In this document: in pieces, positions 61,389 through 64,000 of the stretch
Layout of the letters: every line of letters starts with the position of its first letter
How positions within the stretch are numbered: position 1 is the first letter of the stretch
Assembly: GCA_038887515.1 (NCBI GenBank)
Contig: JAWAKK010000002.1
Location: 160,001 to 224,000, forward strand
Direction: 5' to 3'
DNA length: 64,000 nt
From: Candidatus Nezhaarchaeales archaeon
GTDB lineage: Archaea > Thermoproteota > Methanomethylicia > Nezhaarchaeales > WYZ-LMO8
The notes under the pieces: model-generated
Told to the model about the DNA's origin: nothing
Databases searched by the model: none
Seen by the model: only the letters and a program-made list of their open reading frames with translations
Position numbers and translations under genes: made by a program

Positions 61389-61486
61389 GCGTAGTTACGA
61401 TGTAGAGTTACCTCCTAGAGAGCTTAAAGGACAAGATACGTAAGTTTTATCTTACCTTAGGGGTAGAACCAATCCTTGTGGGTTTT

Positions 61487-63176
61487 ATGAAATACATTTT
61501 CATTACAGGAGGTGTTTTATCAAGCGTAGGTAAGGGGGCCGTGACTGCTTCGATAGGCAAGATGCTCCAGGTTAGAGGCTTTTCTGTAACGGCAATAAAG
61601 ATAGACCCATAGGCCTTAGGGGCCGGGTAAACATAAACGTTGATGCTGGAACAATGAACCCATAGGCTCTGAGCTGGAGGCTTAGAGCCGGGTATATATG
61701 CATGGCGAGGTCTTCGTGACGGAGGATGGCGGCGAGGTAGACCTAGATCTCGGTCACTATGAGCGTTTTCTCGATATAGACCTATCAAAGGACAACAACA
61801 TTACGACTGGACAAGTGTACATGGTGGTCATAGAGGCCGAGAGGAGGGGGAAGTACCTCGGCAAGTGCGTACAAATAATACCTCACATAACCGACGAGGT
61901 GAAGAGGAGGATAAGGTTAGTAGCTCAGAAGAGCAACGTGGACGTGACGCTCGTAGAATGTGGAGGCACAACGGGGGACATAGAGGGACTCCCCTTCCTT
62001 GAGGCTATAAGGCAAATGAGACTTGAAGAGGGCTTTTCGAACACGCTCTTTGTTCATGTAGCCTTAGTTCCAATATTGGAAGTAACTGGAGAATTTAAGA
62101 CGAAACCTCTACAACACAGCGTCCAAGAGCTTAGACGCATAGGTATACAGCCCGACATCGTAGTGGCAAGGTGTAAGCAGCCGCTAGACGATGAAGCCAA
62201 GAAGAAAATAGCGCTTTACAGCAACGTCCCTGAAGAGGCGGTGTTCACGTCTTACGATGTGGACTGCATATACGAGCTTCCAATAATACTTGATGGACAG
62301 GGAATGGGCGCTTACATATGTAAGCGGCTTACGCTAGATGGATGTAAAGCCGACTGGTCTTCGTGGAGGGAGATAGTTGAGAGGTATAGAAGTTTTAAGT
62401 ACGAAGTCGAAGTATGCATGTGCGGTAAGTACACGAAGCTAAAGGACTCTTACATAAGCATAATAGAGGCCTTAAAGCATGCGGGCGCAGCCCTTGAAAC
62501 TAAGGTTAACATGACATGGCTCGAGGCAACAACGTTCGAACAAGGAGAGGGCATACCTCGAGAGTTTCAGGATATTTTGAGTTCCTGTGATGGCATAATA
62601 GTACTGCCGGGCTTTGGGGCCCGTGGGGCAGAAGGTAAGATTAAGGTCATCAGATACGCAAGGGAAAACAAGGTACCGTTCCTGGGCATATGCTTTGGAA
62701 TGCAACTGGCAATTGTAGAGTTTGCACGAAACGTTGTAGGTCTCAAAGAAGCAAACACAACAGAACTTGATCCGTCAACGTACCACCCGGTTGTTGACCT
62801 CCTACCGGAACAGCACTACGTTAAGGAAGTAGGTGGTACTATGAGACTCGGGGCTCAGGCAACCGTGCTTGAACCCGGAACGAAAGTCTACGAGCTTTAT
62901 GGAAGGCCGATAATATTTGAAAGGCATAGGCATAGGTACGAGGTCAACCCGACCTACTGGTCTGTACTTCAAAGCCACGGTTTGGTCTTCTCCGGATATA
63001 GCATTGATAAACGGAGGGTGGAGTTCATAGAGCTCAGGGACCACCCATTCTTTGTTGCAACTCAATCGCACCCAGAGTTCAAGTCGAGGCCCAATAGACC
63101 CTCACCCATATATTACGGCTTCGTGAAGGCCTGCCTCGAGCATAGGCTTAAGAGATTATCAGCTCCGAAATGCTGA
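61487..63176 (+). CDS. pyrG: CTP synthase, split by two introns; join(61487..61610, 61631..61663, 61696..63176), 545 aa
   Basis: Spliced product reads [17 protein letters not shown]...[27 protein letters not shown]; also [16 protein letters not shown] and HPEF. Confidence 0.95.
61611..61630 (+). other. BHB-type mRNA intron 1 in pyrG (AGGCCUUAGGGGCCGGGUAA)
   Basis: ACCC/GGGU helix, bulges AU^A and AA^A, inner hairpin GGCC-UUAGG-GGCC. Confidence 0.9.
61664..61695 (+). other. BHB-type mRNA intron 2 in pyrG (AGGCUCUGAGCUGGAGGCUUAGAGCCGGGUAU)
   Basis: ACCC/GGGU helix, bulges AU^A and AU^A, 10-bp inner stem GGCUCUGAGC/GCUUAGAGCC. Confidence 0.92.
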
Positions 63177-63186
63177 TGGTCAAAGG

Positions 63187-64000
63187 CTATGAACGCTTGA
63201 ACGAAGCATAAGCTTCTCGCATCGCTTCTACGAACCTCCTCGTAGCCTCTTCGGGGTTTGAAGACCTTGTTATCGCTGAGCCTACAATTATTATCTTGCA
63301 ACCACTTTTGACCAATTCTCTTATGTGCTCAAGCCTAACTCCGCCGGCTACAGCGACGGGTACCTTCACGGAATTGACTACTTCCTCAACGAGCTTTATC
63401 TTCCTAGTTACGTCCCTCTCCCTCATTTGCGTACTTATGCCCATATGCACGCATATTATATCGCATCCCAACTTCTCAACCTCCTTTGCCCTGGCGAGTG
63501 GATCCTGTACATTTATCAGGTCACACATTATCTTGACGTTGTACTTCCTAGCAGCACCTACAGCATCTTTAATAGTGTAGTCGTCGGTAGCGCCCAACAC
63601 CGTAACTACATCAGCCCCAGCTTCGGCTGCAAGCTCCACTTCGAGCCAACCCGTGTCAAAGGTTTTGAGGTCGGCTACTATAGTAGCATAAGGGAACCTC
63701 CTTCTAAACTCCTTCACTGCTTCTAGGCCAGCGGACTTTATGAGTGGGGTCCCAACCTCGATGATCTCGGCTCCTCCTCTATAGCAGGCCTCGGCTATGC
63801 TTAGCCCATCTTTCATATACCTTTCATCTATTGCTACCTGTAGCTTGGGCCCCGTGTAGAGGGGCTCGAGACCTAACTGCTGGAGCTTCTTGTCTGTGGG
63901 TACTCCGTGATAGTTCCAGCCTCTAATAGCATAATAAGAATCGATTAATCTCGTTAGGTCGACAACTTCTCCCTTGGATGCCCCCTCTCTCAACTTTTCA
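63187..64000 (-). CDS. Fusion of an aldehyde:ferredoxin oxidoreductase-like C-terminus with 3-hexulose-6-phosphate synthase (5' end outside window)
   Basis: EGASKGEVVDL...YYAIRGW...GVPT..KL..LGL (AOR end) runs in frame into PKLQVAID, IEVGTPLIK, ADLKTFDTG and VAGG (HPS/KGPDC barrel). Confidence 0.8.
   Translation of the reverse strand, partial: EKLREGASKGEVVDLTRLIDSYYAIRGWNYHGVPTDKKLQQLGLEPLYTGPKLQVAIDERYMKDGLSIAEACYRGGAEIIEVGTPLIKSAGLEAVKEFRRRFPYATIVADLKTFDTGWLEVELAAEAGADVVTVLGATDDYTIKDAVGAARKYNVKIMCDLINVQDPLARAKEVEKLGCDIICVHMGISTQMRERDVTRKIKLVEEVVNSVKVPVAVAGGVRLEHIRELVKSGCKIIIVGSAITRSSNPEEATRRFVEAMREAYASFKRS

Follow-up and report, generated by a model that had tools for sequence, protein, structure and literature searches.

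An intron in the pre-mRNA of the archaeal gene cbf5 was reportedly described by Watanabe in 2002. According to the available text of PMC2738675 (Yokobori 2009), this intron of the aCBF5/dyskerin homolog occurs in Desulfurococcales and Sulfolobales with lengths of 16-44 nt, and as of 2009 splicing was unconfirmed for any other gene. The parts available of PMC7714728 (Schwarz 2020) give, apart from that study's own case in a 5′ untranslated region (UTR), only the cbf5 mRNA intron as reported by 2020. As far as the literature can be searched, bulge-helix-bulge (BHB) introns within archaeal coding regions rest in print on this single gene. Here we analyse pyrG, the CTP synthase gene, at 61487-63176 on the + strand of a 64,000-nt stretch of DNA from a hot-spring archaeon of the Nezhaarchaeales (contig JAWAKK010000002.1), called the window below. 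A 20-nt insert at 61611-61630 is very probably an archaeal BHB intron within the coding region of the pyrG pre-mRNA, and one of two in this gene.

The introns of pyrG resemble that of cbf5 in being short, of the BHB type and within a coding region, and in a helix built on conserved codons; the two-subunit EndA of the cbf5 hosts probably has a counterpart here. They differ in that pyrG encodes a metabolic enzyme and not an RNA-modifying one, in the lineage concerned (Nezhaarchaeales), and in that two introns stand 33 nt apart and leave a micro-exon of 11 codons between them. In eukaryotes, HAC1/XBP1 mRNAs undergo an unconventional, stress-regulated splicing by IRE1 and RtcB at twin stem-loops. 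Protein-only splicing, a very short intron, a change of frame and ligation by RtcB would be common to that system and to pyrG, whereas the action of IRE1 on twin stem-loops in place of a BHB, and the regulation by stress, belong to HAC1/XBP1. Splicing of this type is mentioned in the available parts of PMC13149111 and PMC8718801. Crenarchaeota have tRNA introns that are non-canonical or multiple, as described in the available text of PMC5829648 and PMC3241643. These share with pyrG the relaxed motif, the cut rule and the closeness of several introns in one transcript, and pyrG would likewise need an EndA of the (alpha-beta)2 or epsilon2 type; in pyrG, in contrast, the substrate would be an mRNA, and correct excision is read as a frame, not as a tRNA fold. 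In Haloferax volcanii, EndA also acts on an mRNA, that of HVO_1309, whose intron differs by lying in the 5′ UTR, where codons are uninterrupted, and by belonging to a euryarchaeon with a homodimeric EndA (PMC7714728, same parts). Full-text searching turned up no paper in which BHB introns are connected with pyrG, with CTP synthase or with Nezhaarchaeota; its reach did not extend to subscription journals or supplements, and the supplements of PMC2738675 and PMC7714728 could list more predicted introns in mRNAs. The word “intron” does not occur in PMC12700198, on the cultivation of Methanonezhaarchaeia, and “intron”, “pyrG” and “CTP synthase” are absent from PMC8211752, a review of archaeal recoding.

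The layout of pyrG in the window is as follows.

61487-61610, + strand: pyrG exon 1, 41 codons and the first base (U) of Tyr-42; start codon (ATG) and encoded peptide are both conserved among 10 relatives
61604-61632, + strand: relaxed BHB motif 1, with an outer G-C pair, a 4-bp ACCC/GGGU helix, bulges AU^A and AA^A (the caret marks the predicted cut) and an inner GGCC(U) hairpin
61611-61630, + strand: candidate intron 1, 20 nt; its presence creates an in-frame UAG, and once it is taken out the Tyr codon is whole again and the frame open
61631-61663, + strand: exon 2, a micro-exon of 33 nt, with bases 2 and 3 of the Tyr-42 codon, ten whole codons and base 1 of the Tyr-53 codon
61664-61695, + strand: candidate intron 2, 32 nt, with ACCC-AU^A, an 11-bp hairpin and GGGU-AU^A
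61696-63176, + strand: exon 3, with bases 2 and 3 of the Tyr-53 codon followed by 492 codons and a stop
Motif 1 as read from the bases, + strand, 5′ part: G 61604; ACCC 61605-61608; AUA 61609-61611; GGCC 61612-61615; UUAGG 61616-61620
Motif 1 as read from the bases, + strand, 3′ part: GGCC 61621-61624; GGGU 61625-61628; AAA 61629-61631; C 61632

Every element of motif 1 sits where an earlier, sequence-only reading of this DNA had placed it, and the exon and intron boundaries, cut sites and peptide predicted there hold as well, as judged by anatomy, Pfam matches and translation of the spliced frame. Folding with ViennaRNA returned the proposed structure both as minimum free energy and as centroid structure, the hairpin gaining one U-G pair. 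If intron 1 is retained, translation meets the stop TAG at 61610-61612, 41 codons after the ATG at 61487; if 61611-61630 is cut out, the join reads GAC CCA U/AC AUA AAC (D-P-Y-I-N, the slash marking the junction), both as had been foreseen. The predicted spliced sequence at this junction is GACCCAU joined to ACAUAAAC. Exon 1 had also been rightly recognised as the standard CTP synthase start, MKYIF..., and it matches positions 1-40 of the Pfam profile CTP_synth_N (E 6.5e-15). In exon 3 the same profile is matched at positions 54-265 (E 6.2e-91), followed by GATase (E 1.3e-36). Under table 11, the open reading frames (ORFs) found here are one of 44 aa, ending at TAG 61610-61612, and one of 492 aa, starting at ATG 61698. 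Since the Pfam matches cover 1-40 and 54-265, 13 profile positions are absent between the two ORFs, and these are filled exactly by Tyr, ten residues and Tyr (33 nt) plus the Met at 61698. Removal of both inserts yields a coding sequence of 1638 nt, which encodes 545 aa with zero internal stops. Retention of either one gives stops within a few codons.

The two inserts share their anatomy. Each follows the first base of a Tyr codon preceded by CCA. In both, the 3′ end of the insert supplies a GGGU that pairs with exonic ACCC, and the structure further comprises a 5′ bulge of AUA, a GC-rich hairpin and a 3′ bulge of 3 nt. Within the genome, the boundary signature ACCC-AUA-GGC ... GCC-GGGU is found only at these two sites, which would fit a common origin of the two introns, their likeness being partly forced by the exon bases that they have in common. 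Motif 1 has the 4-bp central helix and the two 3-nt bulges on opposite strands that define a BHB (ACCC/GGGU; AUA and AAA). It lacks the strict hBHBh′ form, with at least 2 bp in both flanking helices, as its inner helix has 4-5 bp and its outer helix a single G-C pair; because of this one-pair outer helix, the motif is of the relaxed HBh′ form.

Relatives were then compared. A search with the 492-aa ORF over 41 genomes, the window's own included, gave a match in 39, and the 5′ regions of 30 pyrG loci were examined, 10 from the window's family (4 genera) and 20 from other families. In 10/10 family genomes the open frame ended close to the query start, with a length of 496-504 aa, versus 524-577 aa in other families. 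Both inserts were present at the same codons in all 10 family genomes and in none of the 20 other loci; half of the latter (10 loci, three families) carried one different insert, at the P-loop, and the other 10 had none. Across the family, intron 1 measures 19, 20, 21, 22 or 27 nt and intron 2 30-33 nt, so that every residue class modulo 3 is represented. A fixed BHB cut rule (4-bp helix, 3-nt bulges, cleavage after the second bulge base) nevertheless produced an identical 18-residue junction peptide in 10/10 family genomes. The rule was also applied to a wider set of 21 interrupted pyrG genes, drawn from 110 loci after setting aside 5 duplicates, 2 loci without anchors and 82 without an insert in the region. 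It gave a stop-free segment of 53 codons in 21/21; the solution was unique in 19, and the two alternatives require a mismatch and yield unrelated peptides.

The spliced frame is under purifying selection. Over the 18 codons spanning the two junctions, 11 exon columns vary among the 10 family sequences, distributed 0/0/11 over the three codon positions, and all changes are synonymous. Within exon 2, 7 of the 10 whole codons vary, again at the third position only and synonymously. Such constraint at the protein level on the micro-exon is explicable only by removal of intron 1 ahead of translation, since intron 1 gives rise to a stop codon and its length varies modulo 3.

Covariation was tested on the specified structure, that is, 25 pairs in 10 family sequences (250 cells). 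Paired bases were found in 95.6% of the cells, against 14.3-48.4% when the partners were slid by 1-3 columns. Compensatory changes were detected at four pairs, two in the inner stem of intron 1 and two in that of intron 2. None of 500 shuffles reached the observed values for paired cells, compensatory pairs, compensatory cells or covariation score (0/500 each). Taken by element, the cells of the intron 1 motif helices were paired at 97.5-100%, with 97.5% for the central helix, and those of the intron 2 inner stem at 97%. The outer G-C pair was invariant in the 10 sequences, both of its bases being fixed by codons. Intron 2 has a predicted fold of −23.6 kcal/mol (z = −2.66), a stability reached by 2/200 shuffles. 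Loose BHB-like motifs are common, and our own scan counted about 33,000 of them in 2.6 Mb (both strands). The pyrG inserts stand out from chance because of the exact repair of frame and Pfam profile, the conservation with compensatory changes, and the codon-position pattern in 10 relatives.

The genome (1.29 Mb, 94% complete, 9 contigs) contains the enzymes that splicing of this kind would use. Two EndA paralogs with a tRNA_int_endo domain (PF01974) were found, at C1:132427-133002 and C3:63664-64200 (contig and positions in genome G000). One resembles 3p1z_B, 3ajv_B and 2zyz_B, which are chains of crenarchaeal EndA (E 2.6e-48 to 2.2e-46). The best matches of the other are 5x89_A and 1a79_A, and it also matches 3p1z_A, 3ajv_A, NEQ261 and Sen54 weakly. 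We take the two to be a putative catalytic and structural pair, the roles being assigned by likeness to PDB entries. RtcB is present at C1:94319-95629, as a 492-aa open frame with a PF01139 match (E 5.2e-181), and 46 tRNA genes were called by ARAGORN, 18 of them with introns. The genome also has an insert in cbf5, of 21 nt and with an in-frame TAA, at 333915-333935 of contig C2 (genome G000; 1691-1711 of locus L033). Its anatomy is that of the pyrG inserts (CCCU-AG^A, a GCCC hairpin, GGGG-AA^A), and immediately past it the Pfam match to TruB_N takes up again, at profile position 17. As cbf5 has the one archaeal mRNA intron established in the literature, this insert serves as an internal positive control. 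The cbf5 intron of this lineage lies outside the orders listed in the available text of PMC2738675.

We infer that the pyrG transcript is spliced, with EndA and RtcB as the acting enzymes. In the mechanism that we propose, the 4-bp central helix would form between the exon ACCC carried by the codons GAC-CCA and the GGGU at the 3′ end of intron 1; the 5′ bulge AUA would be closed by the GC-rich intron hairpin and the 3′ bulge AAA by the single G-C pair of the relaxed HBh′ form. A two-subunit EndA would cleave past the second base of each bulge, between U61610 and A61611 and between A61630 and A61631, and RtcB would join the exons. With the sister intron at 61664-61695 also taken out, the product would be an mRNA for one CTP synthase of 545 aa.

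Several observations weigh against this interpretation. The fold energy of intron 1 is by itself unexceptional: in a 51-nt window it amounts to −12.4 kcal/mol (z = −1.13), and 29/200 shuffles were as stable or more. The outer G-C pair is alone, coding fixes each of its two bases, and with it the motif falls short of strict hBHBh′. At the first position of the central helix, A stands opposite C for intron 1 in 1/10 and for intron 2 in 2/10 sequences, and a fifth covariation measure, on further pair types, was reached by 460/500 shuffles. The 10 relatives are kin, and their counts are not independent. The roles given to the EndA subunits are suggested by likeness to PDB chains. Two metatranscriptome runs (X3 and X4), of the same study as a DNA run containing the stretch, gave 0 reads on it with about 3% of each run read, a result that speaks neither for splicing nor against it.

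Could the ribosome, and not an RNA-processing enzyme, deal with the inserts? Recoding would consist of stop read-through plus frameshift, or of a bypass of the T4 gene 60 type, on an unprocessed RNA, and the CCA-UAG followed by a stable hairpin does superficially resemble the take-off site of gene 60; moreover, for intron 2, and in this genome only, landing one base earlier would give the identical protein. We nevertheless hold recoding to be highly improbable. Intron 1 lengths of 19, 20, 21, 22 and 27 nt would demand a different frame change in each genome, and frameshifting is excluded because, with such variable lengths, the offset is not constant among relatives. For a bypass, a second CCA is absent ahead of the 3′ exon, and site 1 offers no Tyr codon for landing, the invariant Tyr arising only when U is joined to AC. 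The same anatomy furthermore recurs in 6 other genes, in all three codon phases. The separate ORFs of 44 and 492 aa under table 11 might also be taken at face value, as a broken gene or as a split gene made of a 41-aa peptide and a 492-aa protein, minus 12 residues. This appears extremely improbable, since the 11-codon micro-exon lies outside both ORFs and yet shows synonymous third-position changes only, over 4 genera; the segment that would be missing belongs to the conserved CTP_synth_N profile, and a protein search with the 492-aa ORF found a single pyrG match in the genome.

That the insert is excised from RNA by some other structure-specific nuclease and ligase, in place of EndA and RtcB, is likewise very unlikely. 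The relaxed motif with its outer helix of merely 1 bp leaves some room for it, as do the inferred role of the two enzymes and the 0 reads from the part of the metatranscriptome runs that was read. Against it, in 21/21 genes the frame is repaired by cutting exactly where EndA canonically cuts, and the cbf5 intron of the same genome has the same anatomy; a cbf5 intron was reportedly found by Yoshinari in 2006 to be cleaved by hetero-oligomeric EndA in Crenarchaeota. Twenty bases are too short for a ribozyme of the group I or II intron kind, and Rfam families gave zero matches at E up to 1 across 61400-61800, so that a self-splicing group I or II intron was ruled out. As for an artefact of assembly or sequencing, the window does come from a metagenome-type assembly in 9 contigs. 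However, the inserts are found in 10 separate genome assemblies, and DNA reads speak to the point as well. One DNA run (X1) is identical over the stretch, and it is possibly the source of the window, hence non-independent. A run of another study (X2), from a related strain, gave one contig over 61483-61670 with 17 differences and 0 gaps, and another over 61587-61652 with 3 differences and 0 gaps. The sequence-only reading had named absence from DNA as a ground for giving it up; the insertion is present without gaps in these independent contigs, and intron 1 therefore exists in DNA elsewhere. With strain-level differences and no gaps in the run of a different study, we give an artefact practically no credence. 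A BHB intron removed from the pyrG pre-mRNA is the explanation that we retain.

Other introns of pyrG, and other interrupted genes, were looked for. In three other families, which belong to the same taxonomic class, pyrG has one different BHB insert; it measures 21-28 nt and interrupts the Lys codon in the P-loop motif GKG. Its signature, GGGG-AA^A ... CCCY-AR^A, is present in 10/10 loci of those families (L014-L017 and L022-L027), and the cut rule restores the frame in all 10. This P-loop intron of sister lineages is an independent third intron site in pyrG. In addition, a contig of 3.6 kb from a Bathyarchaeia-labelled metagenome-assembled genome (MAG), with 66% protein identity (locus L049), has a 21-nt BHB insert with similar ends at the Tyr-42 site, about 130-110 nt upstream of the start of the match at 601; shared ancestry, transfer, parallel gain or mis-binning could account for it.

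A genome-wide screen combining BHB motifs and ORFs gave 5,337 loose candidates that merge ORFs, reduced to 599 by length filters and to 411 by a read-through filter. These lists are mostly noise, and validation was possible only for GC-rich candidates with long stems. The screen is blind to introns longer than 100 nt, to weak-stemmed introns and to introns adjoining another one, so the intron count is a lower bound. Intron 1 of pyrG was missed because it is adjacent to another intron, and intron 2 was wrongly dropped by the filter on antisense ORFs. Three candidates were rejected as introns: C1:118653-118672 (carB) and C1:208239-208266 (P-type ATPase), both of which read through unspliced, and C2:203867-203888, where the unspliced frame is open. 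The screen yielded five further interrupted genes, in each of which the Pfam matches are collinear over the insert. They are listed here with contig positions in genome G000 and, in brackets, positions in the locus.

C1:3238-3267 (L040 738-767), − strand: uS5, candidate intron of 30 nt, ACGG-AC^A ... CCGU-AC^G; the S5 domain resumes at position 17
C3:12273-12294 (L039 1273-1294), − strand: hypD, candidate intron of 22 nt; the Pfam match resumes at position 29
C1:10133-10162 (L146 1133-1162), − strand: IF-2B-family (MtnA-like) gene, candidate intron of 30 nt inside the HC/N motif (the slash marks the insert); profile 2-114, then 117-279
C2:21722-21750 (L147 722-750): aIF5B, candidate intron of 29 nt; GTP_EFTU 4-31, then 61-183
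C2:24144-24175 (L147 3144-3175): aIF2-gamma, candidate intron of 32 nt directly past the GHE codons of the G domain; GTP_EFTU 4-80, then 85-187

These inserts lie in conserved motifs, and all three codon phases are used. Those of uS5, aIF2-gamma and the IF-2B-family gene were checked in relatives, 25 genomes each. The uS5 insert was found in 14/25 genomes, which come from the window's family and from a single sister family; the remaining 11 lack it. For aIF2-gamma, the insert was present in 10/10 family members and 0/15 others, and for the IF-2B-family gene in 9/9 family members with a match and, at that site, in 0/15 others. All three showed compensatory changes in their stems, judged by eye. 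A stop elsewhere in the IF-2B-family gene was seen in two sister-family genomes. Interrupted protein genes are put at at least eight, those named being pyrG, cbf5, uS5, hypD, the IF-2B-family gene, aIF5B and aIF2-gamma.

Two side observations concern the assembly and the window. Contigs C5-C9 (6.6-12 kb) have 50-63% G+C, compared to 44-45% for C1-C4, and may be foreign to the organism. Next to pyrG, an ORF at 63187-63993 on the − strand has an OMPdecase/HUMPS-family domain; over its first 41 residues it matches the AFOR_C profile at the C-terminal end, and its upstream part runs off the window.

If the pyrG transcript is spliced as proposed, pyrG would be a second, unrelated and essential gene in need of BHB splicing, and the first case found of an mRNA interrupted by two BHB introns, which are separated by a micro-exon of 11 codons. 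Beyond pyrG, this anatomy recurs in at least five further genes of the 1.29-Mb genome. Such genes are split or truncated by gene callers, as with the 44 and 492 aa obtained for pyrG under table 11, and this affects what is derived from these MAGs: estimates of completeness, reconstructions of metabolism and phylogenies of marker genes. Because pyrG has gained introns repeatedly, at different conserved codons, the gain of archaeal mRNA introns becomes directly testable, and since Methanonezhaarchaeia have been cultivated (PMC12700198), a cultured relative may be available. A broader possibility, which we put forward tentatively and rate as rather doubtful, is that the pyrG introns are part of a lineage-specific burst of mobile BHB mini-introns in conserved motif codons of at least eight essential protein-coding genes, in one archaeal family, and that they move from site to site and from lineage to lineage. 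One route would be for the EndA/RtcB reaction to run backwards, with reverse transcription or recombination as the next step. Such a burst fits in that the signature of introns 1 and 2 is unique in the genome, a Bathyarchaeia-labelled MAG has an insert in the same Tyr codon, and sister lineages have the P-loop intron. If it were true, splicing of protein-coding transcripts would be routine in these archaea, and the expression of core genes would be tied to their tRNA-splicing capacity.

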